Made by a program: the position numbers and the translations under genes | The notes under the pieces: model-generated | The model's database searches: none | The model's input: only the letters and a program-made list of their open reading frames with translations | Told to the model about the DNA's origin: nothing | In this document: positions 1 through 26,635 of the stretch, one piece after another | Layout of the letters: every line of letters starts with the position of its first letter | Position numbering within the stretch: position 1 is the stretch's first letter | NCBI GenBank assembly: GCA_965205345.1 | Contig: CBDBGQ010000036.1 | Coordinates: forward strand, 65,463-129,462 | Length of the DNA stretch: 64,000 nt | Direction: 5' to 3' | Source of the DNA: Acidobacteriota bacterium | GTDB taxonomy: Bacteria; Acidobacteriota; UBA6911; RPQK01; CBDAPI01

Positions 1-6
1 CGGATA

Positions 7-37
7 GTTCCACGTTTCACGTTCCACGTTCCACGTT
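7..37. repeat. (ACGTTCC)n heptanucleotide tandem repeat, about 4 units, at the window edge
   Basis: gttccacgtttcacgttccacgttccacgtt read directly. Confidence 0.8.
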
Positions 38-441
38 GCTGCTTGCTGATCTGTCACGTCTCCCGGCAGCTTCCGCGCTGCTGCGCAGTCACTGTCGTTC
101 CTGCCTTCCATGAGAAGGCCAATGTATGTCAAGCAACTTGGTGCGTTTAATCGTTTCTTCGATAAGTAACTTCAGCAGCTGTCAGAATGGGGGACTGGAT
201 TCGCGGGCTTCCATTCGCACTCTTGGTGGTCCCTTTTCGCTTCGGGACCGGTGCATGCAGGGGTCCGGCTATCCAGGGGGCTGCTACCTCTGTCGCGACC
301 TCAAGGGTCAGGCAGGAACTCGCAGTCACCCCCGGGACGGGGCGATCTCTCTCACCCCAACTCGTCAAACTGTAGAAGTCTTGTGATCTCCTTTTTGGTT
401 TCGGTGTCGATGTCACTAGGGTAGCTCTTTGCTTAAGGCTC

Positions 442-759
442 TCAGGCTGCCTGGCGGTGGCTCTGGTAAAAGGGATCGTAAAGACTGTCGGCGCGCAACT
501 TGCGTGCATTGGCCACCCACACTTCATGGCCCAGGCTGGATAAAAGTCGAGAGATCCACCCCGAATGAGTCCCCACTTCCAGCGCGATACGGCTGTCCGC
601 CACTGGAGAGAAAAACTTCTGCAAGGCTGCGGCGCGAGTCGCTACTTTCTGTTCCCAAACCAGCTCCCCATCCTCCTGCGAAAGCGCTATCACATGGCAG
701 CTGCGATCCGAAATATCCATCCCGATTGTTACCATTCCATCTCTGTGATACTTTTTCAT
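442..759 (-). pseudogene. IS110-family transposase N-terminal fragment (truncated)
   Basis: 105-aa ORF 'MVTIGMDISDRSCHVIAL...LEVGTHSGWISRLL..HEVWVANARKLR' resembles the N-terminal DEDD domain of IS110 transposases. The C-terminal two thirds are absent. It abuts the IS1182-like element. Confidence 0.5.
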
Positions 760-780
760 CGCCAGACCTCCAGTTTCTAT

Positions 781-2243
781 GGCCCCTAGCAGCCCGTGGT
801 GGAAGTACGTTTTCTGAGCTCAGGTGGTACCCACGGGTGGAAGCAGCGAAGGGGTCGCTGAGTTGGGTTTTTCGGGCCAAGCAGCCGGAATCAGTCCGAA
901 CAGGCCCTTAAGACGCTTGAACAGCGACAAAATCAGTAGCATCAGGGCGCAAATCCGCCCCTGCAGACCCCGCGGCGTTCCCACACCCAGGCTCTGACGC
1001 ATCAGCATCCCCAGATTGAAGGCGCTCACCTGGATCAGCAGTCGCTTCAACACATTCTCATGTCCCCGTACATGCAGCCGTCTCATCCCTCCGCTCCCGT
1101 ACAGATGCGCACAGGGTCGCTCCAGCTGCTCTCCTCGTTGCCGCAGCAGCCGCTGCCCTCGCTCTCCCCGGATGCGCCGCCGATTCGCATACACCGCTTC
1201 CTGCCCCTGCCGGTCTCCTCGCCAGCGTCGCTTCCCTCGCCTCGGTTCGCTCACATAGCTGCGCAGTCCCACCGCATCCAGGTCCACCATCCGCTGCGTG
1301 CTGTGATACCCCTTGTCGGCCACCACCTCTTCGATGCCTCGTCCCTCCGGCAGCGCTTGTTCCACCTTCTCGGCCGCTTCCGTCAGGGTCTTCACCATGG
1401 TCTGCGTGTCCCCTTGATCGGCTCCCTGTACCGTCACCGAGACAATCGCTCCGGTCTCCAGATCCACTGCATGCTCCGCCTTGTGCGCCAGGTGCGTCCG
1501 CCCGTCCTTCATTCTGGTAATCCGCGCATCCGCATCATGCGGGTGCTTCCAAACCCGGTTCGATCCTTTGCCCGTGCGCTTGCGGTCCAGTTTGGCCAGA
1601 TCTTCCCGTCGCGGCGTCTCAATCCCGGAGGCTTTCGCCAGCTCCATCAAAAACTCTTCATACCCCTGCTCGCTGTCCCGGCGCACGATGCTGCGCAGCG
1701 CTGCATTCGCTTCCAGCGTAGTGGCATCGATGCCGATCGTCTTGCCCCGCAGCAGGCCGCTCGCCCCGATCCGCTTCAGTACCCAGTCAAAGACTGCTTC
1801 GTGGGTAGCCACATCGATCAGTCGTCGGGTTCGGGAGATCGTGGAGTGATCAGACGGCGACTCGCTCAGTTTCAATCCCAGAAACTCTCGCAGTGCCAGA
1901 GAATCAGCTGCTCTCCAGGCTATTCCTCGTTCCGATCCGATCCCTTCGAAATACCCCACCAGCAGCAGCCGAAAGTACACTCCCGGAGCCAGGCTCGGTC
2001 GCCCCATCTTGTCTGCATAGAACTTCGCACACAGTCCCTCCACGAAGTCGTCAAAGCCGTGTTCGTTGAAAAGGCCATTCAGTCTTTCGTAGAAGGGATG
2101 GCCGGCGGTGCGGGGCAGCTCACTGGTGGCGACCCACAGGTCTTCTTGCTGTCGACGTTTCTTTTTCCCCATTGCCATGGGGTCAGTCTAGTGTCGCTGT
2201 GTGACCCCTTATCCTCGACTTTCACCACGGGCTGCTAGAGGCC
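781..2243 (-). mobile_element. IS1182/IS5-like insertion sequence (about 1.46 kb) with 21-bp terminal inverted repeats
   Basis: Left IR ggcccctagcagcccgtggtg (781-801) is the reverse complement of right IR caccacgggctgctagaggcc (2224-2243) with 1 mismatch. The repeats enclose a single transposase ORF. Confidence 0.75.
820..2178 (-). CDS. DDE transposase, IS1182/IS5 (IS4 superfamily)-like, 452 aa
   Basis: Length and motifs (GIDATTLEANAA..., DKGYHS...) are typical of IS1182-type transposases. It lies between the terminal IRs. Confidence 0.7.
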   Translation of the reverse strand: MAMGKKKRRQQEDLWVATSELPRTAGHPFYERLNGLFNEHGFDDFVEGLCAKFYADKMGRPSLAPGVYFRLLLVGYFEGIGSERGIAWRAADSLALREFLGLKLSESPSDHSTISRTRRLIDVATHEAVFDWVLKRIGASGLLRGKTIGIDATTLEANAALRSIVRRDSEQGYEEFLMELAKASGIETPRREDLAKLDRKRTGKGSNRVWKHPHDADARITRMKDGRTHLAHKAEHAVDLETGAIVSVTVQGADQGDTQTMVKTLTEAAEKVEQALPEGRGIEEVVADKGYHSTQRMVDLDAVGLRSYVSEPRRGKRRWRGDRQGQEAVYANRRRIRGERGQRLLRQRGEQLERPCAHLYGSGGMRRLHVRGHENVLKRLLIQVSAFNLGMLMRQSLGVGTPRGLQGRICALMLLILSLFKRLKGLFGLIPAAWPEKPNSATPSLLPPVGTT

Positions 2244-2417
2244 ACATTTAACAAGAATTGCAGCACGACCCGTTCGTGACTGCGTAACCTGGCAGAGTCT
2301 AGCTTCTAGGCTTTGCCGGGGTCTGGCCTTCTCATCCCTATCTCTGACGTTTCCTTGGTTGTCTATGTTTCTCGTGGCTTCGGGGCCGGTGCCATGAGGT
2401 GACTTGTCAGGGCGCGC

Positions 2418-2441
2418 AACGTGGAACGTGGAACGTGGAAG
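2418..2441. repeat. (GGAACGT)n heptamer array, about 3.5 units
   Basis: gtggaacgtggaacgtggaa lies downstream of the ispB-like stop. Confidence 0.75.
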
Positions 2442-2465
2442 GGCACGAGCGCCAGCGAGTGCCCC

Positions 2466-3479
2466 TCACTCCACCCGATTAAGAACGTAGGCGGGAAGGC
2501 ACATCAGAGACTCGCGGGCCGCGGAGGCAGGAAAGCTGTTAAGCCAATCCATGGCCTCCGATGCGTAGGTTCGGACCACGTCGCGGGCTTTCTCAAGACT
2601 CTGGTAACGTTGGATCAGAGATAGGATCTCCTGCTTGTCCCCGTCGCTCAGTTTCCCTTGCAGGGCCAGACTGGCCAGCAGTTCCCTCTCGGCCCGATTC
2701 GCCTGGCCGAGTACCAGAATAATCGGCAAGGTGATTTTCCCCTCCTCGAGGTCCTTCAACACAGGTTTCCCCAGACCCTGCTCGTCAGCCGTGTAGTCCA
2801 GCATATCGTCCGTGAGTTGAAAGGCCATTCCGAGGGCCTTCCCAAAGGCTGCCAGACGCTCTTCAGTTGCAGCGGGAGCGCCGGCCAGTATGGCAGGGAG
2901 AGCCGCACAAGCAGAAAACAGCTGGGCAGTCTTGCGCGACGAGATCTCCGTTTGCTCCTGAACGGAAATCGCGACTTGGCCTTCAAGCGCCAGTTGCATC
3001 ATCTCGCCGGTGACCATGGTTCGGGTCAACTGAATAAGGACATCGAGCACCTTGAGATTCCGTAATTCCAGCGCAATCTGAAAGGCGGTCATGTACATCC
3101 AGTCGCCCATGAGCACTGTAATCTCGTTTCCCCACCTGGCATTGACAGAGGGACGGCCACGACGAAGGTCTGCTTTGTCAATAATGTCATCGTGTACGAG
3201 CGTGGCGACATGGATCAGTTCAACGACGGTGCCCAGCTTGATGACCTCGTAGCCCCCGGTCTCGCAGAGCTTGGAGACCAGCAGCAAAAGCGCTGGGCGC
3301 AGGCGTTTTCCGCCGCTCTCGTGAATGTACTGGTTGATCTCGTCGATGAGAGGAAACGCCGAATCCGTGTAACTCTTCAGCTCGACTTCGACTTGCGCAA
3401 GTTCCTCCGCAACCGGGCTCAGGAGCTCTTCCTTCGTCAGGGCTCCGCTCACAGAGAGATCACTTTCCATTCGCAACAT
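2466..3479 (-). CDS. ispB: All-trans polyprenyl diphosphate synthase (octa/heptaprenyl, IspB/HepT-like)
   Basis: FARM motif 'LIHVATLVHDDIIDKADLRRGRP' and second Asp-rich motif 'FQLTDDMLDY' are present. The start is taken at the internal Met (MLRMESD...); the upstream 76 R/K-rich codons of the ORF run through a heptamer repeat and are probably not translated. Confidence 0.8.
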   Translation of the reverse strand: MLRMESDLSVSGALTKEELLSPVAEELAQVEVELKSYTDSAFPLIDEINQYIHESGGKRLRPALLLLVSKLCETGGYEVIKLGTVVELIHVATLVHDDIIDKADLRRGRPSVNARWGNEITVLMGDWMYMTAFQIALELRNLKVLDVLIQLTRTMVTGEMMQLALEGQVAISVQEQTEISSRKTAQLFSACAALPAILAGAPAATEERLAAFGKALGMAFQLTDDMLDYTADEQGLGKPVLKDLEEGKITLPIILVLGQANRAERELLASLALQGKLSDGDKQEILSLIQRYQSLEKARDVVRTYASEAMDWLNSFPASAARESLMCLPAYVLNRVE

Positions 3480-3493
3480 TATAGCCCGATGCC

Positions 3494-3526
3494 GGAACGT
3501 GGAACGTGGAATGTGGAACGTGGAAC
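3494..3526. repeat. (GGAACGT)n heptamer array, about 4.5 units, overlapping the PBP1A stop codon
   Basis: ggaacgtggaacgtggaatgtggaacgtggaac read directly. Confidence 0.8.
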
Positions 3527-5868
3527 TATCCAGTGCGTGGCTTCTTTTCCTTCTCTCCTGCCTTGCCTTCCTTCTCCTCTTCCTCTTCCTCGGACGGAGG
3601 TGGCGGAGGGATCTCCTCGACTTGAATCGGGAGGGCGGCGACCTGCTGTGCTGCCTGCTTTTCCGCGAGTGCGATTTCAAGAGGCGTTGGCCGATAGATA
3701 TTCTCAAAGTCCCTGACGGGAACGTCCTCGAGCGCCTTTCCCATGAAGTCGATCCAGATGGGCAGGGCGAGATTGTTGCCGTAAACCTTCTCTCCCAGGG
3801 ATATCTTTTCGTCGTGACCGACCCAGACTGCCGCAGTGATGTCGGGTGTAAAGCCTACGAACCAGACATCCGTAGACTCATTGGTCGTGCCGGTCTTTCC
3901 TGCCACCGGTCTTCCCAGTACGTTGGCCCGGGCCGCGGTGCCACGCAGGACAACCTGGCGAAGCAGGTAGACCATCCTGGCGGCAATGTCCGGGGAGGTA
4001 GCCTGCTCAAAGCGCATTCGATGTTCTTCCAGAGTGACTCCCTCGTAGTCTTCGACCCGAACCAGGTAATGGGGCACGGCTCGAACGCCGCTGTTGGGAA
4101 AGGCGCTGAAGGCTGATGTCAGCTCCAGAAGCGTAGTCTCACCGGATCCCAGAGCAATCGACAGGACCGGCAGGAAGTCGTGGTCAATTCCGAAACGCTT
4201 CACCGCATCGATAATCTTTTGGACGCCCAGCGCCCGGGCCAATCGCACCGTCGGCACGTTGCGAGACTCTGCCAAAGCCTGATACATAGGGATGAGACCC
4301 TTGAAGTTTTCGTCGGAATTCTTGGGTTCATACAGGTTGCCCACTGCGTCCAGGTAACTGACGGGGGCATCCAGGATTCTTTCGTAGGGTGATCTTTCTT
4401 CCTCGAGAGCAACCAGATAAGTGAAGGGCTTGAAGATGGATCCGGGCTGACGCAGAGCCTGTGTAACTCGATTGAACTGGCTCAGCTCGAAGTCGAATCC
4501 GCCCACCATGGCCCGCATGGCGCCGGTCTTGTTATCCAGAACTACCATTCCACCCTGGATCTCGGGAATGCGATCCAGCACGACTTCCACATTCTGCGCT
4601 GCGACGTCAACTTTCTGAATCAGGAAATGAGCCAGATCTCCAGCTCGAAAGACTCTGGTCAGATCCTCTTCTCCGGTCCACTCAACTTCTGCCGGACCAA
4701 TGTCCGCGGAGTATTTTCCAAAGCGGATCCCGGCGCTATTTTCTTCGACTTCCATGATGAGGCCCCGAACCATCCGGCCCGGGTCGAAGACCTGACTCCA
4801 CTCAGGATCCGTGTATTCATCGAGATTCTTGCCCTCATCCACAAGATTTCGGGGTGCTCCTTCCCAGGGTCGATGGGTCTTGTCAAACTCCTTCAGCCCC
4901 TTTCGAAGCGCCTGTCGAGCAATCCTGTGCAGATTGGAATTCAGAGTCGTATAGATCTTGAGCCCACCCTTCCAGATGGTCTCCGTCGAATAGTTCTTCT
5001 CCAACGCCTGACGAACCCATTCGACAAAGTAGGGAGCCACTTCCCGTACATCACTTCCCCTGGACATCAGTGGCTCCTGAAGCGCCTGTTCCATCTTCTC
5101 CTGTGAGAGATAACCTTCATCGACCATGCGCCTGAGAGCGTAGGCTCGACGGGTCAGTGCCGCCTCCGGATTACGAATGGGAGAAAACCTTCCCGGGACC
5201 TGCAGGATTCCGGCCAGCAGAGCACATTCTGCAGTCGAGATCTCATTCAGGGGCTTGTTGAAATAGAAGCGGGCGGCAGCCGCCATCCCGTAAATACCGT
5301 GCCCCATGTAGATCTGATTGACGTAAAGCGTAAAGATCTGCTCCTTGGAGTAGTTCTGCTCGGTTTCGAGCGCGAAGAGCCAGTCCTTGATTTTGCGCTC
5401 CAGTCGCTTTTCCGAACCGGTAAAGCGCAGCTTGCAGAGCTGCATGGTCAGGGTCGAGGCTGCTTTCCAGCGAGTGTAATGGAGGCCTTGATTCCAGAGG
5501 TTGCGGACCATTTCGATCCCCAGCCTCGAGAAGTCGATGCCCGAATGTTCAAAAAAATCCGCGTCTTCAGCGGCCAGAATGGCCTGCTTGAGTTGTTGGG
5601 GAATCTGGCCATATGTCACCAGAATCCGCCGTTCCAGGGCAAACTCACCGATTACCTGACCGTCCGAGGAGTACACATAGGACACTACATTGGGACGAAC
5701 GTCCTGGAGTTCCTCGACCTGAGGTAGGTCAATGGTGTAGCCCAGGACGACTCCAGCCAGTCCCCCAAACAGGACGGTTACCAGTACCAGGAGGCCGTAG
5801 CTCATCCAGAAGAGGGGGCCGCGCACGGTGACAACGGTTCTGAACTTTCTCCAGACTTTCGAGAACAT
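3526..5868 (-). CDS. mrcA: Penicillin-binding protein 1A (bifunctional glycosyltransferase/transpeptidase), 780 aa, with an acidic/Pro-rich C-terminal tail
   Basis: N-terminal TM segment, GT51 motifs (EDADFFEHSGID, RQ..TLTMQL) and transpeptidase motifs (SIFKPF, KTGT) are present. Confidence 0.85.
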   Translation of the reverse strand: MFSKVWRKFRTVVTVRGPLFWMSYGLLVLVTVLFGGLAGVVLGYTIDLPQVEELQDVRPNVVSYVYSSDGQVIGEFALERRILVTYGQIPQQLKQAILAAEDADFFEHSGIDFSRLGIEMVRNLWNQGLHYTRWKAASTLTMQLCKLRFTGSEKRLERKIKDWLFALETEQNYSKEQIFTLYVNQIYMGHGIYGMAAAARFYFNKPLNEISTAECALLAGILQVPGRFSPIRNPEAALTRRAYALRRMVDEGYLSQEKMEQALQEPLMSRGSDVREVAPYFVEWVRQALEKNYSTETIWKGGLKIYTTLNSNLHRIARQALRKGLKEFDKTHRPWEGAPRNLVDEGKNLDEYTDPEWSQVFDPGRMVRGLIMEVEENSAGIRFGKYSADIGPAEVEWTGEEDLTRVFRAGDLAHFLIQKVDVAAQNVEVVLDRIPEIQGGMVVLDNKTGAMRAMVGGFDFELSQFNRVTQALRQPGSIFKPFTYLVALEEERSPYERILDAPVSYLDAVGNLYEPKNSDENFKGLIPMYQALAESRNVPTVRLARALGVQKIIDAVKRFGIDHDFLPVLSIALGSGETTLLELTSAFSAFPNSGVRAVPHYLVRVEDYEGVTLEEHRMRFEQATSPDIAARMVYLLRQVVLRGTAARANVLGRPVAGKTGTTNESTDVWFVGFTPDITAAVWVGHDEKISLGEKVYGNNLALPIWIDFMGKALEDVPVRDFENIYRPTPLEIALAEKQAAQQVAALPIQVEEIPPPPPSEEEEEEKEGKAGEKEKKPRTG

Positions 5869-5917
5869 CTTTCCCTTCGAACCTGCTCGGCAGTACTGGT
5901 TCCAATCTTAACCCATT

Positions 5918-6048
5918 GTTCCACGTTCCACGTTCCACGTTCCACGTCCCGGGGATCCTAAACGATTCCAGGTTCGAAGAAAGCGTGGAACGTGAAACGT
6001 GAAACGTGAAACGTGAAACGCGGAACGTGGAAGGTGGAACGTGGAACG
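5918..6048. repeat. Inverted pair of heptamer arrays, (ACGTTCC)4 then a 35-bp spacer then (GNAACGT)9, between greA and mrcA; a potential long hairpin
   Basis: gttccacgttccacgttccacgttccacg ... gtggaacgtgaaacgtgaaacgtgaaacgtgaaacgcggaacgtggaaggtggaacgtggaacg. Confidence 0.85.
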
Positions 6049-6055
6049 CAGAGCG

Positions 6056-6523
6056 TCAGCGAGTGTCGTGAATGGTGGTGAGCCCGACAATCTCGTAGGT
6101 GACCTTTCCCCGCGGCGTCACAATCTCGACTTCATCGCCTTCCTGCTTCCCCATCAGACTGCGACCGATCGGGGAGCCGGTAGAGATGAGTCCCGCCTTC
6201 ACGTCCGCCTCCTCGCTCGTCACCAGGCGATAGGTTGCCTCTTTTTCTGTCGCCAGGTTGAGAACGACGACTGTGGACCCGTAGGAAACGCGATCCTCCG
6301 GGAGTTTTCTGAGATCGACCATAGAGAGATCCGAGAGCCGCTTTCGAAGCTGGGCCAGCCGGATCTGAACGATTGACACGCGCTCCTTGGCCGTCTGATA
6401 CTCTGCATTCTCTCGCAGGTCTCCCATCTCGATAGCTTTCTTTAAGGCAGCAGGGAGCTCCTCGGTGAGTTCTCGCTCCAGGGCTCTGACCTCTTGTTCC
6501 AGTTTTCTCTTCGCCTCTTTCAA
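6056..6523 (-). CDS. greA: Transcription elongation factor GreA
   Basis: 155 aa with an N-terminal coiled-coil and 'GDLRENAEY' motif, followed by a C-terminal FKBP-like domain. Confidence 0.85.
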   Translation of the reverse strand: MKEAKRKLEQEVRALERELTEELPAALKKAIEMGDLRENAEYQTAKERVSIVQIRLAQLRKRLSDLSMVDLRKLPEDRVSYGSTVVVLNLATEKEATYRLVTSEEADVKAGLISTGSPIGRSLMGKQEGDEVEIVTPRGKVTYEIVGLTTIHDTR

Positions 6524-6535
6524 AGGACACCCACC

Positions 6536-6990
6536 TCACTCGCTATTCGCACCAAAGGGCCTGGAAACAGCCCCAGCACGAAGGTGCCCAGGACCATCAC
6601 CAGGATCACTAATCCGGCGACCGCCGGCACCCTGACGGCTTCTTGGTGGTGTAGAAAAGGCCCCCAGAATGAAGTACTTCCAGGCCGCCTCAGCCGACTT
6701 CGTGTCGACTCGATAGCCCACCAGAACATAACTGGTGATGGAAAGGACTTCGATTCCCAAAAAGGTCACAATCAGGTCTGAACTGGTCGCCATCAGACCC
6801 ATTCCCACCGTAACGAGCAGAATTAGGATCAGGAACCCTGCTGTAGAACCCCGTAAATGGCCCGACGAAGCACCACAACCCCGAGGGCTGTGACAACCGA
6901 GATGGTTGCGAACAGGTAGAAAACTAACAGCTCCACTCGGACCTCTTGAGATCGCTGTCCGGACGAAATGGGCATCTTATGTTCACTCTC
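6536..6990 (-). pseudogene. Degenerate remnants of NADH-quinone oxidoreductase membrane subunits (NuoJ-like N-terminus plus a NuoN/ND2-like internal segment), with frameshifts and stops
   Basis: 'ELLVFYLFATISVVTALGVVVLRRAIYGVL' resembles a NuoJ N-terminus. 'LIVTFLGIEVLSITSYVLVG...EAAWKYFILGAFS' resembles a NuoN core. The pieces lie in different frames and no complete ORF exists. Confidence 0.4.
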
Positions 6991-7005
6991 GGACGCTGTC
7001 AAGGC

Positions 7006-7290
7006 AGCCTTTCGGTTCCGAGTTCCGGGTTCCGAGTTCCGGGTTCCGGTTCCGGGGGGGCGTGTTGCCAAAGGGTGCGCTGGCCCGCGCATTGACTGTA
7101 GGGCACGGTTATTAAGCGTGCCGAACTGGACCCGGTGGCACAGTTCATCCATTTCCGGGCCATTGTTGTCATCTCCATTGGTTCGGCACGCCAGGTTGGC
7201 GTGCCCTACGAATCACACCCGGCGGTCGCGGCCCGAGGCCCTCCACTTCAAGAGCGCGGAACCTGGAACTCAGAACCCGGAACTCGGAAC
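7006..7290. repeat. Inverted arrays of variant heptamers, (TTCCGRG)n at 7006-7053 and (GGAACYC)n at 7258-7290, flanking a 200-bp hairpin-rich spacer
   Basis: The spacer contains a perfect 8-bp stem ggcacgcc/ggcgtgcc, and gtagggcacg...cgtgccctac as long-range inverted repeats. Confidence 0.7.
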
Positions 7291-7381
7291 TCGGAACTCC
7301 GGATGTTGAAGTCCGACCTGCTGCGGGATAAGATCTTTCTCAGGTAGTTCGAGGACTCTCACCAAGAGGGATGAAGACAGC

Positions 7382-8386
7382 ATGACAGGCACTGTTGAAG
7401 TCGTAGTGAATGGTCAACAGCACAGCCTCCCCGACCGGTGGACGATCGGAGACGTGATCAGCCACCTGATCGATCCGTCCGGTCCGGTTGCGGTTGAGCT
7501 GAATCGGGAGATACTTCGGCGCGATCTCTGGATGTCAAAAAGGGTCGAGCCGGGCGACCAGATTGAAGTGGTCCATTTCGTGGGCGGAGGAGAGGCGACG
7601 CAGACGACTGAAGCAGACGAACTCGTAGTTGGTGACTGCCGCCTGCGCTCCCGTCTGATCGTAGGCACCGGAAAGTACGAAAGTAACGAGCTCATGCGTC
7701 AGGCGCTGGCGGCCAGCGGCTCGGAGATGGTCACCGTGGCTGTTCGCCGGGTCGATTTGAGCGGCCGCGGGGAATCGCTCCTCAACTACATTGACAGGGA
7801 ACGCTTCCACATCCTCCCTAATACAGCTGGTTGCTACACTGCCGAGGAAGCGATTCGCTACGCTCGTCTGGGGCGGGAAGCAGGGCTTTCATCCATGGTG
7901 AAACTGGAGGTCATCGGGGACGAGCGGACCTTATTTCCCGACAACGAGGCACTGCTGAAGGCCACCCGCACGCTCGTGAGCGAAGGCTTCACTGTCCTGC
8001 CTTATACAAACGATGATCCTGTAGTGTGCAGGAAGCTGGAAGACCTGGGGGCCGCAGCCGTCATGCCATTGGGAGCCCCGATCGGTTCCGGTCTGGGAAT
8101 TCAGAATCCGAACAACATCAGCATCATCCGCGAAGTGGTGTCGGTGCCGTTGATCGTGGATGCCGGTGTGGGGACGGCCTCGGACGCCGCTCTGGCGATG
8201 GAGCTGGGCGCCGACGGCGTCCTGATGAACACCGGTATCGCAGGAGCCGGGGACCCGGTGAGCATGGCACGTTCCATGCGACTGGCCGTAGAAGCCGGTC
8301 GCCTGGCCTGCCTGGCCGGAAGAATACCCAGGCGCCGCTATGCTACCGCCAGCACTCCATCGGCGGGAATGTTGCCCAGTTCATGA
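7382..8386 (+). CDS. thiG: ThiS-ThiG fusion protein (sulfur-carrier ThiS domain ending ...VHFVGGG, fused in frame to thiazole synthase ThiG)
   Basis: The N-terminal 70 aa form a ThiS-like beta-grasp ending in GGG. A 10-aa linker follows, then ThiG motifs ([11 protein letters not shown], ...NTAGC). There is no stop between the domains. Confidence 0.75.
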
Positions 8387-9492
8387 GAAAGATTGGAGTC
8401 GAGCTCGGGCCCAGAAGCTACAGCATCCTCATCGCCCCCGGGCTGGGCAAGGAGGCGGGTCGGCTGTTCCTGGAGTATTCCATCGCAAAGAGAGTCTTCC
8501 TGGTCTCGAACAAGAAGGTCTTCTCTCTGCATGGGGCTCAGGTTTGCCGGAGCCTCCAGGAAGCTGGGTTCGAGGTCACGGAGATCTTTGTCCCTGATGG
8601 TGAGGCCTACAAGAATCTCCACACAGTAGAGAATATTTATACCTGTCTGGCCGCTCAGCGGGCTGACCGTGAATCCACGATTGTGGCTCTGGGGGGAGGG
8701 GTTACAGGAGACATGAGCGGGTTTGTGGCGGCCACCTTTCTGCGGGGAATCGACTGCGTTCAGATACCCACTACCCTGCTCTCTCAGGTGGACAGCTCAG
8801 TGGGTGGAAAAACGGGAGTTAACCACCAGAAAGGGAAAAACCTGGTGGGGGCGTTCCATCAGCCCCGTCTCGTCCTGATCGACACCGCGACACTCTCTAC
8901 TTTGCCCGAACGCGAGTTTCAGTCTGGGCTTTACGAGATCGTCAAGTACGGCCTCATTTATGACTCCAGCTTCTTTTCTTTCCTTGAATCCAACCTGGAC
9001 AGTTTGCTGGCCAGAGGAGAGGAGACTCTGGAGCAGGTGATCGCCCGCTGTTGTGAGATCAAGGCCGAGGTTACGTCTCAGGATGAAAGGGAGTCGGATC
9101 TGCGTAGAATCCTGAATTTCGGGCACACTTTTGGACATGCTCTCGAAGTCGCCACTTCCTACGTACGGTTGACCCACGGGGAGGCGGTCGCACTCGGGAT
9201 GCTGGCCGCGACTGAGCTTTCGCGCGAGTTGGACCTGCTGGACTCCAGGGCAGCAGACCGAGTTGTCAGAATGATTCGAAGTGTGGGCCCTCTTCCGCCC
9301 ATAGATGATATCGGGTATCCAGAGCTTCTCGAAGCCATGGAACATGACAAGAAGCGCCAGGAGGATGTCGTTCACTTTGTTCTCCTGGAGCGGATCGGCC
9401 ACACCGAGATTCGGGCAAACCTGGAACAGGCACTTCTGGCTCAGGTGTGGAGCAGCGTACAGGCGGCCGAACAATCGCTGTCGCATGGTTGA
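8383..9492 (+). CDS. aroB: 3-dehydroquinate synthase
   Basis: Motifs '[20 protein letters not shown]' and '[11 protein letters not shown]' are present. The start ([10 protein letters not shown]) overlaps the thiG stop as ATGA. The upstream 119 codons of the ORF overlap thiG and are not counted. Confidence 0.85.
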
Positions 9493-10192
9493 GAGAGACG
9501 GCCGCAAGATTCGGGGCATGTTCGGCGCCATCGCTCCGACCTACGACTTTCTGAACCATCTCCTCTCTTTCTCGGTAGACCGTTACTGGCGAAGGGTCAC
9601 ACGAAAACAGCTGGAAGCCCGCCTCGGACCTTGCAGTCGAGCACTTGATCTTTGCACTGGAACCGGGGACCTGGCGCTGGAGATGGCGAGAATGGGTCCC
9701 GTGACCGCCTGTGACTTCGCACGCCCGATGCTGGTCAGGGGAATGCGCAAGGTGCAGCGGCGGGCACCTGCGAATCCAATTCGTTTCGTGCAGGGTGATG
9801 CGCTCGAACTTCCGTTTCCCTCCCACACTTTTCAGGTTGCGACCATCGCCTTCGGTCTTCGCAACCTGGAGGATTATGGGAGAGGACTGGGGGAGGTGGC
9901 GCGAGTTCTCCGGGCAGGAGGGTATCTGGCCGTCCTGGAATTCGCGGTGCCCGACTCGAGGATCTTTGCAGCCCTCTACCGGATCTATTTCGAGCGCCTC
10001 CTGCCTGTGGTCGGAGGTCTGATCTCGGGTCAGATCAACTCGTATCGCTACCTCCCTGAGTCGGTCAAGGGTTTTCCCCGGGGTGTCGAACTGGAGAGGC
10101 TCTTTCTGGACGCGGGTTTTTCGACACCGGACTCACTGAAACTATCGGCGGGTATCGCCGAAATCCACATCGCACGAAAGCAGCAGGATTAG
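9485..10192 (+). CDS. ubiE: Ubiquinone/menaquinone biosynthesis C-methyltransferase UbiE/MenG
   Basis: 'MFGAIAPTYDFLNHLLSF' plus SAM motif 'ALDLCTGTGDLA' are present. The start overlaps the aroB stop by 8 nt. Confidence 0.8.
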   Translation: MVERDGRKIRGMFGAIAPTYDFLNHLLSFSVDRYWRRVTRKQLEARLGPCSRALDLCTGTGDLALEMARMGPVTACDFARPMLVRGMRKVQRRAPANPIRFVQGDALELPFPSHTFQVATIAFGLRNLEDYGRGLGEVARVLRAGGYLAVLEFAVPDSRIFAALYRIYFERLLPVVGGLISGQINSYRYLPESVKGFPRGVELERLFLDAGFSTPDSLKLSAGIAEIHIARKQQD

Positions 10193-10444
10193 TAGTTGCG
10201 GATGATTCTCCAGTAAACTGGTGCCCACACGGGCGTTTTCGGGGGCTGGTCCTGGTGAGAGAGCCGGGACTGCGAACATGCGCCTGGGAAGAAGGTGTGC
10301 GACATGAAAACCATCTACTGGATCGATTAAGGAGCCAAGGAAGAAGGCCGCGCACCGCGCCGTCCTTTTGGGGCACAGCTTGGAATCATCCTGTCGCCAG
10401 GCCTGGGGACGAGTGGACGGGGGTGGCCGCTTCGCAGCAGAGCA

Positions 10445-11075
10445 GTGCGTTTTTTTACCGACGATCTGCCTCAACCCGCGCGGAAGTATCTTTCGTCGAT
10501 CACCGTTGTGGGCTTACTCATAGCAGTTTACTCCTACACTCGCGTGATTCTGGAGGCGGATGGACAGTGGCTTTATCTCGCTCTTCTGACCGCGGTGGCC
10601 GCCTTTCTGCCGGTGCGGCTGCGTTTTTCCGGAGATCAGATTCTCTCCGTCAGTTTCACGATCAGCGACGTCTTCATATTCAGCGGGCTCCTTTTTTTCT
10701 CCCCCGAAGTGGCGGTGGCGATCGGAATCATTGATGCGACCCTCGTCAGTTTCCAGTTCCTGCACCGATCACGGATGTATCGATTCCTTTTCAACGTCGC
10801 TCAGGTGTCGATCTCCATTTTCTTTGTCGGAACCCTCTTCTACCTGATCCAGGGGCACTTGCCTCCCCTGACCGGCCAGGACTCGGTGATCCAGACCTTC
10901 CTCAACGTGGGGATCTGCGGCTTTCTCTACGTCGGTCTGAATACTACAGCGGTGGCCACAGCCATGTTTCTGTCCAGCCCCGGGGCGGGCACCGAAGTGT
11001 GGCGTGCCAGCATAGTCCCCTCAGCCTTCTCGACCCTGGCCGGGGCGCTGACCGCCGCCTCGATTTTCTTCGGGT
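10445..11075 (+). CDS. Polytopic membrane sensor domain, 6-7 TM helices; probably the N-terminal part of the downstream histidine kinase, separated from it by a +1 frameshift
   Basis: A run of hydrophobic helices ends about 11070. The out-of-frame continuation is junk, while the +1 frame continues as a TM helix and PAS domain. Confidence 0.5.
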
Positions 11076-13115
11076 GTGACCTTGGAGCAGGAGTTATTGT
11101 TCGGAGTGGCCATTTCCCTCCCACTGATTCTGGTCCTCTACATCTCCTACCGCATGGCCAACGAACGTGTGGAAGGACTGTTGGAATCCCGCAGCTTACT
11201 GCAGGATTCGCTGGATGCCATAGAGTCGTACATTGCGGTGCTGGATGAGTCGGGTGTGATCATCACTGCCAATCAGTCCTGGAAGTCCTTCGGTGTGTCC
11301 GGACACCTTTTTGGTGAAGATTTAGCGGTGGGGATGAACTACCTGGATGAGCTTGACTCAAACCTGTCAAGAAACTCGGACGCCACTACCAGCATCAGCC
11401 AGGGTATCCGCCAGGTTATCGCCTTTGAGAAACCGGAGTTTTCATGCACGTACTCTACTGCGACCACCAGTTCTACCTCCTGGCTGGTGGTACGCGTTAC
11501 CCGCTTCAAGATTCAGGATCCGATTCGGGTTGTGGTCGCGCATGAAGACATCACCGAGCGTCAGCGGGCTGAACAGGGTTTGAGGCTGAGCGAAGAAAGG
11601 TATCGACGCTTCTTCGAAGACGACCTGACGGGTGATTTTACGGCCAAGCTCAACGGTGACATCCTCACTTGTAACACAGCCTTTACGAGGATGTTCGGGT
11701 TCGAGTCTCTTCAGCATGCAGAAAGCTCCAACCTGTTTTCACTGTTTCCGGGCCAACAGCAGACGATTGAATTCCTGGAGCTTCTTCGCTCCCAGAAAAA
11801 GCTCGAATACCATGAGATTGAACTTCGGCGCATCACCGGCGATCCCGTCTACGTCGTAGCCAATGTGACCGGCTCGTTCGACGAGAGAGGGTTCCTTTCG
11901 CGTGTCACAGGATATTTGTTCGACGACACCGCCCGGAAAGCACTGGAAGCCGAACTTCGGCAGGCACAGAAAATGGAGGCCGTCGGCCAGCTTGCGGGAG
12001 GAATTGCCCACGACCTCAACAACATATTGACTGTCATCATGGGCTACGCAGAGTTCCTCAAGGATTCCCTGTGGGAATCATCCGAGGGGCGCGGGGATGC
12101 CCAGGCAATTCTGGACTCGGTCGATCGGGCCCAGAGTCTGACCCACAAGCTCCTGACGTTCAGCCGCCACCAGGTTCTGCAACCTGAGACACTGGATATG
12201 AACAAGGTCGTTCAAGACTTTTCGCAGCTTCTGCGCCGGATCATTCGAGCCAATATCAGAATTGAGACCCAGCTGGATCCCCAAATCAGCCCCGTGCGAA
12301 TGGACCCCGGCCAGATGGACCAGGTGCTCATGAATCTCTCGGTCAATGCGCAGGACGCCATGGCGGAGGGGGGGGCCCTGACGATTCGAACCGCGAAGCG
12401 TTCTGTCGAGGAAGGCCAGGAGGACGTGCCGGCCAACTTGAAAGCCGGCGAATACGTCGTGATCAGTGTGATAGATGAGGGGGAAGGGATCCCTGACAAG
12501 GTTCGGGAGCGAGTCTTTGAACCCTTCTTTACGACCAAATCCACCGGTCAGGGAACGGGTCTGGGTCTTTCCATCGTCTACGGGATCATTACCCAGGGTG
12601 GTGGCCAGATTCACATCCGTAAGGGTGAGGAAAAAGGAACCGTTTTTGAAATCTGGTTGCCAGCCGGTCAACCCGTCCAGGTGCCGCTCCCTGCCCCGCC
12701 GGAGGAGACCTCTCTCGCCCGCAAGGATGGAGACGAAACCATCCTTCTGGTTGAGGACGAGGACCGGATTCGCGAACTGATCAGCGAAATCCTGAGGCGC
12801 AAGGGATACACCGTCTTCGAAGCTGCCGACGGAGAAAAAGCGCTTCCCCTGGCGAAGAGACTCGGGGCCTTCGATCTGCTGATCACCGACCTCATCATGC
12901 CGGTCATGGGTGGCTGGGAACTGGCTCGAGAACTCAGAAAGACGAGAGAAGGGGAGGACCTCCGTGTTCTTTACATCTCCGGCTACCCGGACACGATCAA
13001 CCCGGAACTCCTGAAAGGGGGTTCCGCGGGTGTGTCTTTCCTGGCAAAACCGTTCACCCCCGGTGCACTATTGCAAAAAGTGCGAGAGATTCTCAGCCCG
13101 AGCCGAGATGCTTGA
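11076..13115 (+). CDS. Hybrid sensor histidine kinase/response regulator (TM helix, two PAS domains, HisKA, HATPase_c, REC)
   Basis: H-box 'GGIAHDLNNIL', N/G boxes 'NLSVNAQDAM...GTGLGLSIV', and a receiver domain 'ILLVEDED...DLLITDLIMP' are present. Confidence 0.85.
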   Translation: MTLEQELLFGVAISLPLILVLYISYRMANERVEGLLESRSLLQDSLDAIESYIAVLDESGVIITANQSWKSFGVSGHLFGEDLAVGMNYLDELDSNLSRNSDATTSISQGIRQVIAFEKPEFSCTYSTATTSSTSWLVVRVTRFKIQDPIRVVVAHEDITERQRAEQGLRLSEERYRRFFEDDLTGDFTAKLNGDILTCNTAFTRMFGFESLQHAESSNLFSLFPGQQQTIEFLELLRSQKKLEYHEIELRRITGDPVYVVANVTGSFDERGFLSRVTGYLFDDTARKALEAELRQAQKMEAVGQLAGGIAHDLNNILTVIMGYAEFLKDSLWESSEGRGDAQAILDSVDRAQSLTHKLLTFSRHQVLQPETLDMNKVVQDFSQLLRRIIRANIRIETQLDPQISPVRMDPGQMDQVLMNLSVNAQDAMAEGGALTIRTAKRSVEEGQEDVPANLKAGEYVVISVIDEGEGIPDKVRERVFEPFFTTKSTGQGTGLGLSIVYGIITQGGGQIHIRKGEEKGTVFEIWLPAGQPVQVPLPAPPEETSLARKDGDETILLVEDEDRIRELISEILRRKGYTVFEAADGEKALPLAKRLGAFDLLITDLIMPVMGGWELARELRKTREGEDLRVLYISGYPDTINPELLKGGSAGVSFLAKPFTPGALLQKVREILSPSRDA

Positions 13116-13908
13116 CAACCAGAGGATCGCCGTTGTCCTCCCAGCCTACAACGCCGAGTCGACTCTTGAAAAAACCTACCGCGAGATCCCCAGAAAGGTG
13201 GTTGATGAAGTGGTCCTGGTCGATGACGGAAGCTCGGATGCAACGGCTCGAATCTCGAAAGACCTCGGAATCAAGACCATCTGCCACGGTCACAATCTTG
13301 GTTACGGTGCCAACCAGAAAACCTGCTACTGTCACGCCCTCTCTCTCTCGGCCGATATCTTTGTCATGCTCCACCCGGACTACCAGTACTCGCCCCGGCT
13401 GATTCCTGCGATGGCCGCCATGATTGTCAGCGGGGAGTTCGATGTCGTCCTGGGCTCCAGGATCCTGGGCGGCACCGCCCTGAAGGGAGGAATGCCGGTT
13501 CACAAGTACTGTGCCAATCGATTCCTGACCTGGTTCGAGAACCTGTTCACGGGCGCCAAACTCTCCGAATATCACACCGGCTTCCGCGCGTTCTCTCGGA
13601 GGGTTCTGGAGGTGCTTCCGCTGGGAAGTAACTCGAATGATTTTGTTTTCGACAATCAGATTCTGGTCCAGGCTCTGCACTTCGGATTTCGAGTGGGTGA
13701 AATCAGTTGTCCGACCCGATACAATGCAGACGCCTCGACCATCAACTTCGGGAGATCGATTGTGTACGGGCTTGGAGTGATGGGGTGCAGTCTCCAGTAC
13801 CGGATCCAGCGTACCGGGCTGTGGTCCTTTCCCGTTTTCGACCCGGCAGGCAAACTGGAACCTCGGATCAATGACGCTTCAGAGAGCGGTGAAAGTCACC
13901 ACGAATAG
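13108..13908 (+). CDS. Family-2 glycosyltransferase (DPM1-like)
   Basis: 'IAVVLPAYNAESTL...VVLVDDGSSD' GT-A fold motifs are present. The start overlaps the kinase stop by 8 nt. Confidence 0.75.
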   Translation: MLDNQRIAVVLPAYNAESTLEKTYREIPRKVVDEVVLVDDGSSDATARISKDLGIKTICHGHNLGYGANQKTCYCHALSLSADIFVMLHPDYQYSPRLIPAMAAMIVSGEFDVVLGSRILGGTALKGGMPVHKYCANRFLTWFENLFTGAKLSEYHTGFRAFSRRVLEVLPLGSNSNDFVFDNQILVQALHFGFRVGEISCPTRYNADASTINFGRSIVYGLGVMGCSLQYRIQRTGLWSFPVFDPAGKLEPRINDASESGESHHE

Positions 13909-14989
13909 GAGGAGCGCCGGTTTTCGGATCGTTCTAACCATTGTTCTCCTGCCCTTTTTTCTCTTTCCTGCAGAACTGCTGGTCAAATACATAAGGACGC
14001 CGGGACCAGCCCGGCAGGACACGATTCCGAGCAGTTACATGCCCACCAGACTTCGGCCCAACTTCAGGGGCCCGATTGGGGACATGCAGGAAGTGATCAC
14101 CAATCGCTACGGCTTTCGGGGAGAGCCCGATTTCCCCCGGCGCAGACCTGACGATGAGTACCGGATTCTGGCCCTGGGTGACTCCATTGGCTTTGGCTTT
14201 GGCGTGCAACCGGGAGAGACCTATTCCCGACAGGCGGAAGCGCTCCTGACGGGCGGACCCGGGCGGATTCGAATCATCAATGCAGCGGGACAGGGCTACA
14301 GTCCCTCGACGTATCTTGCCTACCTGCAGGCGGAAGGGTTCGACCTTGAACCCAACCTGATACTGGTTCAGGTGGAGCCTTCCAACGACGTTACTGATGA
14401 AGCCCTGCTGCGAGTTGTGGATGGAGGAGGCCAGGATGTGGAAGTGCGGGGCGGGAGGTATTGTGTGACCTGGGACGGCAACCTGCTGGGATCTTTCACG
14501 CTGGGCCCCTATTTCTACGAACGGACGTATCTCTACACCATGCTCACACGCCGTCTCCTGGAGACGCTGGGGCGGCTCTTTCCCGGGCACTCGGCACTCT
14601 CGACTCCGGGAAGCCTCTACTATCACATGGGTTTTGATCGCTTTCTTTTCACTTCGGCGAGGCTCGAATCCGGCTGGACTCAGTCTCAGGCAGCTCTCTC
14701 GCAGATCAGAGAAGTCGCCAGCCGGCACGGATCCCGGTTCGTCCTGCTACTAACTCCCACCCTCTATGCTTTCCACGAGAACAGGACACTGAACGGTTCT
14801 GGAAATCTGCTGATCGACCGGATGACTAACTGGGCCCGGCAGCAGTCAATCGATACCATCGACCCCCGGGCTGCGCTTGCCGGAAACGGGGGTACAGCCC
14901 TTTTCACGGACTTCGCCCACTACACGCCAGAAGGGCACAGGGTTCTGGGGCGGGAGATCGCACGGTATCTTCAGGATCAGCTGCGCTGA
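13871..14989 (+). CDS. SGNH/GDSL-family hydrolase, membrane-anchored
   Basis: N-terminal TM helix, 'ILALGDSIGFGFG' (GDS block I) and 'DFAHYTPEGH' (DxxH block V) are present. Confidence 0.65.
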   Translation: MTLQRAVKVTTNRRSAGFRIVLTIVLLPFFLFPAELLVKYIRTPGPARQDTIPSSYMPTRLRPNFRGPIGDMQEVITNRYGFRGEPDFPRRRPDDEYRILALGDSIGFGFGVQPGETYSRQAEALLTGGPGRIRIINAAGQGYSPSTYLAYLQAEGFDLEPNLILVQVEPSNDVTDEALLRVVDGGGQDVEVRGGRYCVTWDGNLLGSFTLGPYFYERTYLYTMLTRRLLETLGRLFPGHSALSTPGSLYYHMGFDRFLFTSARLESGWTQSQAALSQIREVASRHGSRFVLLLTPTLYAFHENRTLNGSGNLLIDRMTNWARQQSIDTIDPRAALAGNGGTALFTDFAHYTPEGHRVLGREIARYLQDQLR

Positions 14990-14992
14990 TCC

Positions 14993-15027
14993 CGGGTTCC
15001 AGGTTCCAGGTTCCACGTTCCACGCTC
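14993..15027. repeat. (GGTTCCA)/(ACGTTCC)-type heptamer array
   Basis: gggttccaggttccaggttccacgttccacg lies between convergent genes. Confidence 0.75.
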
Positions 15028-15075
15028 CGGAGGAAGGGATTCGTAGGGGCCGTAAAGCCACCAGCGCCATCGAAT

Positions 15076-17574: not shown

Positions 17575-17579
17575 TGGCT

Positions 17580-17608
17580 CGTGGAACGTGGAACGTGAAA
17601 CGTGGAAC
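17580..17608. repeat. (GGAACGT)n heptamer array, about 4 units, abutting the fabH stop
   Basis: gtggaacgtggaacgtgaaacgtggaac read directly. Confidence 0.8.
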
Positions 17609-18600: not shown

Positions 18601-18665
18601 CCGCTCCGCCTTCCTTCGATTGCCATGGTCAACAGCTCACTCCTTCCCAAGTCTCTGCAGAAGTA

Positions 18666-19325: not shown

Positions 19326-19825
19326 TCGCTGTCGGGGCTCCCCTCGGTGACTTCCTGGTTGTGGCTCCCAAACAGACTGAGCGCCAGAATCAGCAGGACT
19401 CCAGTCGTGATCGCTGAGTCAGCCAGGTTGAAAGTCGGCCAGGCAAAGACATCACGCCAGTGCAGTTTAATGAAATCAACCACGTACTGGTGGGTCAGAC
19501 GGTCAACGAAATTGCCGAGAATGCCGCCCAGCACCAGCCCCAGAGCCACGAAGATGACGTGCTCGTCGACAGGCGTAGTCCAGATGTAATAGAGAACCAT
19601 GCACATGGCGACAACAGCCAGCAGACTCAGAAGGGGGCTTTTCCACTGGGACTGGACATCGTTGAACAATCCAAAGGCAATTCCCGTGTTTTCGACGTAG
19701 TGAATGGTGACGAATTCCTCGAAGATCGGGTAATACTGGAGCCACAGGCTGGTCTTCACCCACCACTTGGTCAAGAGGTCGGCTGCGAAGACAATGAATG
19801 CCAGTGAAATGGACAGCTTGCGCAT
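19322..19825 (-). CDS. lspA: Lipoprotein signal peptidase II
   Basis: 'FNLADSAITTGV' hallmark and 4 TM helices are present. The start is taken at MRKLSISLAF; the upstream 77 codons of the ORF run through the repeat array. Confidence 0.85.
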   Translation of the reverse strand: MRKLSISLAFIVFAADLLTKWWVKTSLWLQYYPIFEEFVTIHYVENTGIAFGLFNDVQSQWKSPLLSLLAVVAMCMVLYYIWTTPVDEHVIFVALGLVLGGILGNFVDRLTHQYVVDFIKLHWRDVFAWPTFNLADSAITTGVLLILALSLFGSHNQEVTEGSPDSE

Positions 19826-26473: not shown

Positions 26474-26475
26474 TA

Positions 26476-26633: not shown

Positions 26634-26635
26634 TA

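Follow-up and report, generated by a model that had tools for sequence, protein, structure and literature searches.

Strain-variable heptanucleotide repeat arrays at gene ends in an uncultured Acidobacteriota bacterium

A stretch of 64,000 nucleotides from an uncultured Acidobacteriota bacterium (GenBank assembly GCA_965205345.1, contig CBDBGQ010000036.1, positions 65,463 to 129,462; hereafter the window) carries dispersed tandem arrays of a 7-nt unit, GTTCCAC on one strand and GTGGAAC on the other (GGAACGT in another phase). At a rough probability of 0.55, these arrays are lineage-specific, hypermutable heptanucleotide microsatellites, mostly neutral or selfish, that are kept outside genes by selection against frameshifts; on this account they would be the acidobacterial counterpart of the cyanobacterial short tandemly repeated repetitive (STRR) sequences, the Xanthomonas GGGAATC repeats and the Beggiatoaceae TAACTGA repeats. 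Whole units are gained and lost between strains differing by about 0.5%, and arrays occur only where a frameshift is harmless, i.e. in non-coding DNA, where they typically start with the final base of a stop codon. In sister species the arrays are dispensable, and their sites recur with turnover of the unit.

Results

Repeat arrays and their unit

Tandem Repeats Finder and direct viewing of the sequence revealed period-7 arrays at every site named in a sequence-only reading of the window that preceded this work. All of them were present at, or a few bases from, the positions given there, one (57077-57158) only as a weak array. With a lower threshold, 22 arrays of 2-9 units, mostly about four, were called. 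A self-match scan yielded 12 strong runs of period 7 and none of periods 4-6 or 8-12. The dimer (GGAACGT)2 occurred nine times, against zero in 100 dinucleotide-preserving shuffles, and the single heptamer was counted 40 times in 9,972 non-coding bases and nine times in 54,028 coding bases, the expectation for the whole window being about 4.3 per strand.

The strict GGAACGT unit that had been described before could be confirmed in its 7-bp period but not in its sequence. The unit is a variable family with GTTCCAC as the main form and GTTTCAC, GTTCCGR, GTTCCAG, GTTCTRG and GTTCAAA as variants, and about one third of the arrays are built from GTTCCGR, GTTCTRG, GTTCCAG or GTTCAAA. GTT was kept in 72 of 74 units phased to GTTCCAC, a phasing which itself somewhat favours the apparent invariance. 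In these units position 4 was C in 64 and T in 9, position 5 was C in 61, position 6 was A in 55 and G in 17, and position 7 was free. Variant units had spread inside single arrays and were common to both arms of inverted pairs, as is GTTCCGR in the arms at 7015 and 7257. Head-to-tail 7-nt copies place the arrays among the dispersed heptanucleotide simple-sequence repeats (long simple-sequence repeats or STRR). The units GTGGAAC/GTTCCAC lack any run of three or more G or C and do not belong to the G-quadruplex subclass.

Neither an Rfam match at gathering score nor a tRNA was found in the window, so that a tRNA or known RNA family was rejected, and the array sequence itself is not described in the literature searched. 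LexA-type GTTC-N7-GTTC sites and integron attC core sites were dropped as their spacing and orientation did not fit.

Position relative to genes

Gene calling by a codon model that had been trained on the window gave 52 genes (coding fraction 84.4%), in agreement with the genes and Pfam records of near-identical contigs. Although only 15.6% of the window is intergenic, 21 of the 22 arrays were located there (binomial p = 2e-16), so that an equal frequency inside genes, named beforehand as the outcome that would speak against an intergenic bias, was not observed. The statement that all arrays are intergenic fails for one, 56850-56864, which forms the last codons of a Lar_N-like gene; otherwise no tandem heptamer copy was seen inside any gene of the window. 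Arrays account for 6% of the intergenic bases and are found in 14 of the 45 gaps between genes.

As had been proposed, arrays abut stop codons: eight begin 0-12 nt past the stop of tatD, mrcA, fabH, ORF 47432-47935, a GDSL-like gene, rplI, greA and a STAS-domain gene. In tatD, mrcA and fabH the G of the stop codon TAG is base 1 of the first unit, and at ORF 47432-47935 the array follows directly after TGA. Some arrays occupy gaps of 33-55 nt within apparent operons. The fabH array fills a co-directional gap of 33 nt, and the next ATG follows 5 nt after the array without a Shine-Dalgarno sequence; the array between mrcA and the polyprenyl synthase gene likewise lies in a short co-directional gap (46-55 nt). 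Each of the seven single GTTCCAC-type arrays has GTTCCAC on the sense strand of the gene that ends next to it. Since four of these lie on the plus and three on the minus strand, their orientation follows transcription and not replication. Ordinary housekeeping genes flank the arrays. Neither a conserved motif nor a target duplication was found around them, and no array is placed within the 5' part of a coding sequence or in the spacer between -35 and -10 hexamers, the positions expected of contingency repeats in surface or variable genes; one abuts a promoter-like site of greA. The unpaired arrays are as follows; labels beginning with L denote contigs used for comparison.

7-37, plus strand: GTTCCAC, GTTTCAC, GTTCCAC, GTTCCAC, beginning with the G of the tatD stop TAG
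2418-2440, minus strand: about three GTTCCAC, 25 nt past the polyprenyl synthase stop; one unit fewer in L100
3494-3526, minus strand: 4.7 units at the mrcA stop (TAG/TTCCACG); the same in five strains
14995-15024, plus strand: two GTTCCAG then two GTTCCAC, 5 nt past the GDSL-like stop, between convergent genes; one unit more in L097
17580-17604, minus strand: from the fabH stop (TAG/TTCCACG) to the next ATG
25403-25428, plus strand: 3.7 units between a TPR gene and ispE; in L132 the flank TTACTCG is replaced by TTCCACG, i.e. one extra unit
32166-32189, plus strand: 3.4 units, 8 nt past the rplI stop and upstream of dnaB
49176-49208, minus strand: GTTCTRG array (AGAACCY on the plus strand) whose end is 1 nt short of the ATG of a bshC-like gene at 49210; L134 has one unit fewer
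57080-57156, no strand assigned: weak composite of CACGTTCCACGTT then (AACTTTG/AACCTTG)4

Variation between strains

Four long-read metagenome contigs, 99.4-99.7% identical to the window over its first 16.5 kb, encode the same GreA protein as the window. Further contigs cover most of the other array-bearing regions, so that up to five strains could be compared for each array. In a 14.3-kb alignment of five strains, substitutions were seen in 77 columns, together with 12 internal indel blocks, of which six were changes of 7, 14 or 21 nt within arrays; the others were a miniature inverted-repeat transposable element (MITE) in the spacer of the greA pair, a G-run, a CT-run, a CTAG duplication and two 7-nt indels outside repeats. 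The comparison of unit numbers among strains that had been suggested showed 9 of the 22 arrays to vary by whole units, and the two arms of a pair changed length independently.

The assemblies had 5-15x coverage and single alleles may include consensus errors; some length alleles were common to independent assemblies, however, and consensus error is therefore unlikely as their general cause. The same arrays were found at the same places in five independent assemblies, that of the window and four others, which rules out an artefact of assembly or of this contig. Because strains 99.4-99.7% identical differ by whole units, the arrays are real hypermutable microsatellites.

Related species and other genomes

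Six relatives with GreA proteins 83-88% identical were compared over 20 syntenic kb (L101, L102 and L136-L139). L101 (88%) carried arrays at the same five gene ends, with GTTCCGG/GTTCCGA as the unit. GTTCCGG stood in both arms of the orthologous greA pair, and a pair with GTTCCGG/GTTCCGA units extended a perfect 18-bp stem-loop after tatD. The units of L139 were GATTCCR, AGAATCT and GTTACYG; L102 had degenerate GTTCCAC arrays and an AATTAAA array. L138 retained the fabH array only, and almost no arrays were present in L136 (88%) and L137 (87%). The greA-type pair was absent in L136-L138. At the tatD site, four species carried unrelated units, including AATTAAA. An essential role at the array-bearing genes appears unlikely from this comparison, because sites recur while units turn over and genomes are either array-rich or array-poor; a genome-level determinant of array abundance and of the dominant unit is likely.

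A scan of a genome collection for (GGAACGT)3 returned at least 96 loci from many phyla, with several matches per genome in Acidobacteriota, a Syntrophorhabdaceae metagenome-assembled genome (MAG), Moraniibacteriota, Prevotellaceae, Chloroflexota and Gemmatimonadota, bin labels that may not all be reliable. In 694 kb of matched loci, 182 runs of period 7 stood against 0-11 at other periods, and about 70 of the 182 had unrelated units. No gene family was enriched near the arrays: in an all-against-all BLASTP of 3,135 ORFs from the 96 loci, none occurred in more than nine loci. In viral contigs the GGAACGT unit gave two matches, against 13 and 14 for two control heptamers of the same composition. 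Controls of this kind (e.g. CAGTTGC, GAGCATG) formed long arrays and inverted pairs in viral contigs (L108, L122-L129); paired heptamer arrays are thus not confined to cellular chromosomes. That GGAACGT is special across life was rejected, its breadth alone being no evidence when controls are commoner in viral contigs. Heptamer arrays, often paired, are general in bacteria and phages.

Arm order was GTTCC-first in 23 of 25 pairs among the loci listed by a unit-specific search, and 18:2 in genome loci of several phyla with a generic detector, about ten of these pairs coming from one genome; a small metagenome sample gave 1:3. A degenerate-pattern scan of metagenomes returned mostly other ACGT-containing heptamer families and too few GTTCCAC pairs for arm order. 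The sense polarity of single arrays, 7 of 7 in the window, was 9:8 in other phyla with crude gene calls, so that a general polarity was rejected. The spacers of the 25 pairs showed no mutual similarity, and a MITE family with a shared core was likewise discarded, only two recurrent cores having been found.

Inverted pairs and their cores

Five inverted pairs are present in the window, all ordered (GTTCCNN)n-spacer-(NNGGAAC)n with spacers of 39-206 nt. Between a quarter and half of the arrays belong to such pairs; about half are single and without the ability to pair. The sequence-only reading had suggested that such pairs could extrude perfect hairpins of 30-60 bp. The ability to fold into long hairpins was borne out, but perfection was not: the arms are imperfect (e.g. 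94% complementary over 34 nt) and differ in length (30 nt against 65 nt in the pair at 5918-6048). The pairs and their associated elements are as follows.

5918-5947, plus strand: greA-mrcA pair, arm (GTTCCAC)4; strains with 3, 4 or 6 units
5984-6048, minus strand: greA-mrcA pair, other arm of nine units, four of them GTTTCAC, 7 nt past the greA stop; strains with 7-9 units
7015-7056, plus strand: GTTCCGR pair, arm, in the thiG/greA divergent region; three length alleles
7098-7209, no strand assigned: doublet like a REPIN (a hairpin-forming doublet of repetitive extragenic palindromic, REP, sequences), two inverted GTAG-headed GGCACG hairpins at 7098-7126 and 7181-7209
7257-7303, minus strand: GTTCCGR pair, other arm, of which 34 nt are 94% complementary to 7015-7048; two length alleles
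19874-19894, plus strand: tonB-like/lspA pair, arm, between the tonB-like gene and lspA
19899-19927, plus strand: nested (GGTTCTR)4 array within the spacer of the tonB-like/lspA pair; one unit more in L132
19944-19979, minus strand: tonB-like/lspA pair, other arm, five units
47936-47964, plus strand: arm of the 47936-48167 pair, at the stop of ORF 47432-47935 (TGA/TTCCACG); two units fewer in L135
47965-48142, no strand assigned: core of about 180 nt between the arms of this pair
48143-48167, minus strand: other arm of this pair (GTTTCAC/GTTTCGC), 12 nt past the stop of the STAS-domain gene
56850-57046, plus strand: GGTTCTR array split by a MITE (halves 56850-56865 and 57031-57046, MITE 56866-57030)
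62393-62410, plus strand: maf/pqqD-like pair, arm, between the maf and pqqD-like genes
62445-62478, minus strand: maf/pqqD-like pair, other arm, with one 1-nt insertion

As RNA, the pairs folded at -35 to -167 kcal/mol. When both strands of six pairs were folded, no advantage of the sense strand was seen, and in three co-directional cases the antisense RNA folded better; selection at the RNA level on the sense strand was rejected. In positions 1-20000, where 26 hairpins with a T-run were predicted against 18 +/- 5 expected, none overlapped an array, and the arrays do not qualify as intrinsic terminators.

The pairs bracketed hairpin-forming or repeated cores in at least three cases. Part of the core of about 180 nt at 47965-48142 recurred at 61-106 of the window beside an array (stretch 7-116), and part of it was also found, with degenerate array ends, at the L102 thiG/greA site, which is non-orthologous. 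In L101, both array pairs flanking greA enclosed GTAG-type REPIN-like cores that are 87% identical (GTAGGAGGAC...GCTCCCAC); this core was also present in L139 and L030. The GGCACG-type doublet of the window had a homologue without arrays in L096. At the orthologous thiG/greA site the window and L101 had the array type GTTCCGR in common, whereas the core differed. GTAG-headed REPIN-like doublets of two sequence types were thus observed in the clade, some bracketed by arrays and some not. Their positions in relatives are given here.

L101, 9653-9741 and 10506-10598; L139, 13082-13143; L030, 5662-5724; L096, 2940-3060: REPIN-like doublets

The heptamer arrays themselves are not REPs, which are 20-40-nt palindromes with a 5' GTAG; only the core at 7098-7209 has these features. 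No gene for a REP-associated tyrosine transposase (RAYT) turned up in the window, among the nine ORFs that were scanned against Pfam. The only Y1 transposase seen, in L101, was of the IS200 type with hairpins of its own and without adjoining arrays. Nor do the pairs as a whole qualify as MITEs or foldback elements: inverted ends are present, but without duplication or flank motif and with unrelated spacers, the result being mixed for the two recurrent core families. The arrays often flank hairpins or repeated cores, without being just the termini of a single mobile element.

Transposable elements were seen within an array and within the spacer of a pair. The site 56846-57046, which the sequence-only reading had counted among its arrays, is one GGTTCTR array into which a 165-bp MITE with 27-bp perfect terminal inverted repeats (TIRs; AGTGCAGTTCGCCATAAGTTCTGAGCC) has been inserted at TA; its flanks are direct and not inverted because a single array was split. 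This MITE supplies the stop-codon region of the Lar_N-like gene, and a partial copy lies at 26380-26473. In one strain, another MITE (L098, about 10565-10770, equivalent to about 5957 of the window) with the ends CCCGGATTATTCATAA, a TTAG duplication and an alignment gap of 179 nt sits within the spacer of the greA pair.

Other variable features

Differences outside the arrays were also recorded. The G-run in a sensor kinase gene at 12367 has 7-9 G among strains and the CT-run at 13339 differs by one CT, each reflecting either frameshift variation or consensus error. The 7-nt indels at 11015 and 11072-11078 (+TGGCCAT in L100, +GGGTGTG in the window) lie in non-repetitive intergenic DNA, and their size is curious beside the period of the arrays. 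An IS5-like element (DUF772 and DDE_Tnp_1; 790-2234, ORF 820-2178 on the minus strand) is absent in L098-L100, and L097 has an insert of another size at this site. In L133 (ERZ26167216) an IS1595 transposase and a DctM gene come after the alanine racemase gene, an order different from that of the window at about 34.7-47.1 kb, which may be a strain-specific rearrangement or island. A MITE of about 165 bp with the TIRs CTAGTGTACTGTCCGGGAAGT occurs at 47108-47271 and 26474-26636, and a copy 92-100% identical was found in a different Acidobacteriota MAG (L030, 6318-6573). Positions 34709-34946, the first 238 nt of the intergenic region 34709-35139, are 71% self-complementary, suggesting a large palindromic element. 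In unrelated metagenome contigs (L140, L151, L155, L163, L175, L185 and L194) the 14-nt palindrome GTTCCACGTGGAAC was noticed within longer direct repeats.

Discussion

Origin of the arrays and alternative explanations

On the microsatellite account, units would be gained and lost by replication slippage of 7-nt loops that mismatch repair handles poorly, as the allele patterns suggest. Purifying selection on reading frames would confine the arrays, which could grow up to the coding boundary. Template switching at an existing hairpin, be it a REPIN-like doublet, a stem-loop or another repeated core, would copy an adjoining array to the other side, thereby extending the palindrome and creating an inverted pair. 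The fixed order (GTTCCAC)n-core-(GTGGAAC)n would then be explained by the sense orientation of single arrays in this lineage. Most arrays would be passengers, neutral or selfish, in the 3' untranslated and intercistronic regions, and any REP-like effect of the paired forms on mRNA ends would be secondary.

A number of observations weigh against this explanation. Slippage does not explain the invariance of GTT (72/74) beside variable positions 6 and 7, the presence of one dominant unit per genome (GTTCCAC in the window, GTTCCGG in L101) or the spread of one unit to about 20 loci in 64 kb. Nor does it explain the fixed order of the pairs, seen in 5/5 cases in the window and 18:2 in genome loci, with 1:3 in the metagenome sample. 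Two observations have the look of mobility, namely the pair of array-REPIN-array copies in L101 and the presence of the 180-nt core at non-orthologous sites. In other phyla the sense polarity did not recur (9:8, with crude gene calls). Slippage itself is deduced from the patterns of alleles, and the preference for period 7 is not accounted for. As period 7, the GTT core and the colonisation by one unit are left unexplained, there is room for a trans-acting factor.

The sequence-only reading had favoured a dedicated function such as a protein-binding array, a terminator or an insulator. Several results speak against an essential function of this kind: sister species lack arrays at the same gene ends, single arrays form no hairpins, arrays lie in operon gaps of 33-55 nt, no terminator overlaps them in 1-20000 and the sense RNA is not the stabler one. 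A dedicated function as such is neither established nor excluded.

In the form that survives best, albeit at about one chance in five, the arrays would be binding sites of a dedicated, sequence-specific DNA- or RNA-binding protein that reads GTT(C) every 7 nt and with which the unit co-evolves. The invariant GTT with free positions 6 and 7, the species-specific dominant unit, the modal number of about four units, as in Xanthomonas, the tight placement at gene ends and the sense orientation of all seven single arrays in the window would all fit such a protein. On the other hand, these genes carry almost no arrays in sister species, the number of units varies freely, the tatD site carries unrelated units in four species (AATTAAA among them), no gene family was enriched near the arrays in 96 loci and the sense polarity is not general.

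It is somewhat less probable that the inverted pairs act like REPs or bacterial interspersed mosaic elements (BIMEs), their hairpins stopping transcription, insulating convergent genes or protecting mRNA 3' ends. The folding energies of -35 to -167 kcal/mol are consistent with this, as are the location past stop codons, in one case (47936-48167) between convergent genes, the retention of the greA pair in L101 with a compensating unit change in both arms, and the report that most Xanthomonas repeats are transcribed (PMC4692102). About half of the arrays are single and unable to pair, however, and no hairpin with a T-run coincided with an array in 1-20000. Furthermore, the antisense RNA folds better in three co-directional cases, some arrays lie in the 33-55-nt gaps of apparent operons, the greA-type pair is absent in L136-L138 and arms vary in length independently.

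Doubtful to a slightly greater degree is the idea that the pairs are mobile foldback-type elements with the arrays as TIRs and a transposase encoded elsewhere (e.g. a REP-associated Y1 enzyme), single arrays being remnants. It would account for the fixed arm order, for the two 87%-identical array-REPIN-array copies around greA in L101, for the 180-nt core with array ends at the non-orthologous L102 sites and at 7-116 of the window, and for variant units common to both arms. Against it stand the otherwise unrelated spacers of 25 pairs, the lack of a target-site duplication or conserved flank, the different cores between equal GTTCCGR arrays at thiG/greA (window versus L101), the REPIN-like core without arrays in L096 and the ordinary IS200-type nature, with own hairpins, of the only Y1 transposase seen (L101).

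No better a prospect than the foldback elements is a dedicated, horizontally spreading machinery that seeds and maintains arrays at gene ends and hairpin flanks. It could be a templated polymerase, a reverse transcriptase or an HUH/Y1 enzyme allied to REPs, the template or specificity of which would set the dominant unit. Such a machinery would explain the GTT core, the species-wide change of unit, the pair order, the patchy presence in sister species and the recurrence of the unit family in several phyla.

Contingency loci, in which a change of unit number switches neighbouring genes (phase variation), are very improbable: unit number varies between strains, one array lies 1 nt before the bshC-like ATG with a one-unit difference in L134 and another abuts the greA promoter-like site, but most arrays follow the stops of housekeeping genes (rplI, fabH, mrcA, greA, tatD), no 5' coding region and no spacer between -35 and -10 hexamers contains an array, and published families are likewise without a link to surface or virulence genes (PMC4692102).

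Altogether, the arrays fail the tests for REPs, MITEs, intrinsic terminators, contingency loci and quadruplexes, while their paired forms may act like a REP doublet.

Significance

Why 7-nt repeats accumulate and what they do has been a question since 1990, and the acidobacterial case makes it testable. Public long-read metagenomes provide several strains together with array-rich and array-poor sister species, from which slippage rates, unit turnover and gene correlates are measurable. Arrays that bracket REPIN-like cores hint that two classes of extragenic repeats are linked. In practical terms, Acidobacteriota genomes have hot spots of assembly and strain variation at these arrays.

Comparison with known repeat systems

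A 7-bp period at this density had been called highly unusual for a bacterial chromosome. This view had to be given up, as heptanucleotide repeats are reported to be the commonest class of long simple-sequence repeat in numerous bacterial genomes (Mrazek 2007, quoted in PMC4679880), and Xanthomonas contains about 186 GGGAATC arrays of the same anatomy (PMC4692102). It has been proposed that 7 nt correspond to the DNA segment held by the polymerase (PMC4679880, PMC4692102).

Two groups of transposable or extragenic elements resemble the arrays in part. Like REPs, BIMEs and REPINs, the arrays are extragenic, lie past stop codons, form inverted doublets that yield long hairpins, follow a genome-specific master sequence and persist at orthologous sites. 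Unlike them, they are not 20-40-nt GTAG-headed imperfect palindromes, and REPs show no slippage of units. Foldback transposons and MITEs likewise have terminal inverted repeats of short tandem repeats in variable number around a heterogeneous middle, whereas the arrays are without target-site duplication, mostly without a shared core and without a link to a transposase.

Closer parallels exist among heptamer repeats. The cyanobacterial STRR and the Nostoc GGGGAYT/TTTTGAA repeats comprise several heptamer families per genome, which are intergenic and near start or stop codons as here; they differ in unit and phylum, and some reach at least 26 units, compared with a maximum of nine in the window. 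Regulatory roles have only been speculated upon for the cyanobacterial repeats (Mazel 1990 as cited in PMC4692102; bioRxiv 10.1101/2022.06.06.494920). The Beggiatoaceae TAACTGA repeats form 169 dispersed intergenic sets of 2-6 copies (MacGregor 2015, PMC4679880), and their unit is shared with distant phyla (PMC4679880). Some stand directly before start codons without a Shine-Dalgarno sequence, as do the arrays at 17580 and 49176; most, however, lie upstream of start codons and only one inverted repeat was found, while the arrays of the window follow stops and are often paired.

The closest likeness is to the Xanthomonas GGGAATC repeats described by Rehm et al. (2015, PMC4692102). Each genome carries about 186 dispersed arrays, 89-93% of them intergenic and mostly of four units, at a mean distance of 28 nt from the upstream and 160 nt from the downstream ORF (PMC4692102). 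Inverted pairs number 70-75, always in one relative orientation, and most repeats were reported to be transcribed, with no function found (PMC4692102). Both families are built of tandem 7-nt units in which a core is conserved and other positions vary, are intergenic with about four units, lie nearer to the upstream gene end (eight arrays in the window) and have pairs of one orientation (5/5). They differ in that the acidobacterial unit GTTCCAC/GTGGAAC is without G-tracts, so that the G-quadruplex idea raised for Xanthomonas cannot apply to GTTCCAC; in this case the quadruplex explanation that has been put forward for Xanthomonas and Nostoc falls away. They differ further in the host, here an uncultured member of the Acidobacteriota, and in the strain polymorphism and loss in sister species shown here. 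The acidobacterial family is a further case, with a new unit and in a new phylum, of the known class of heptamer repeats.

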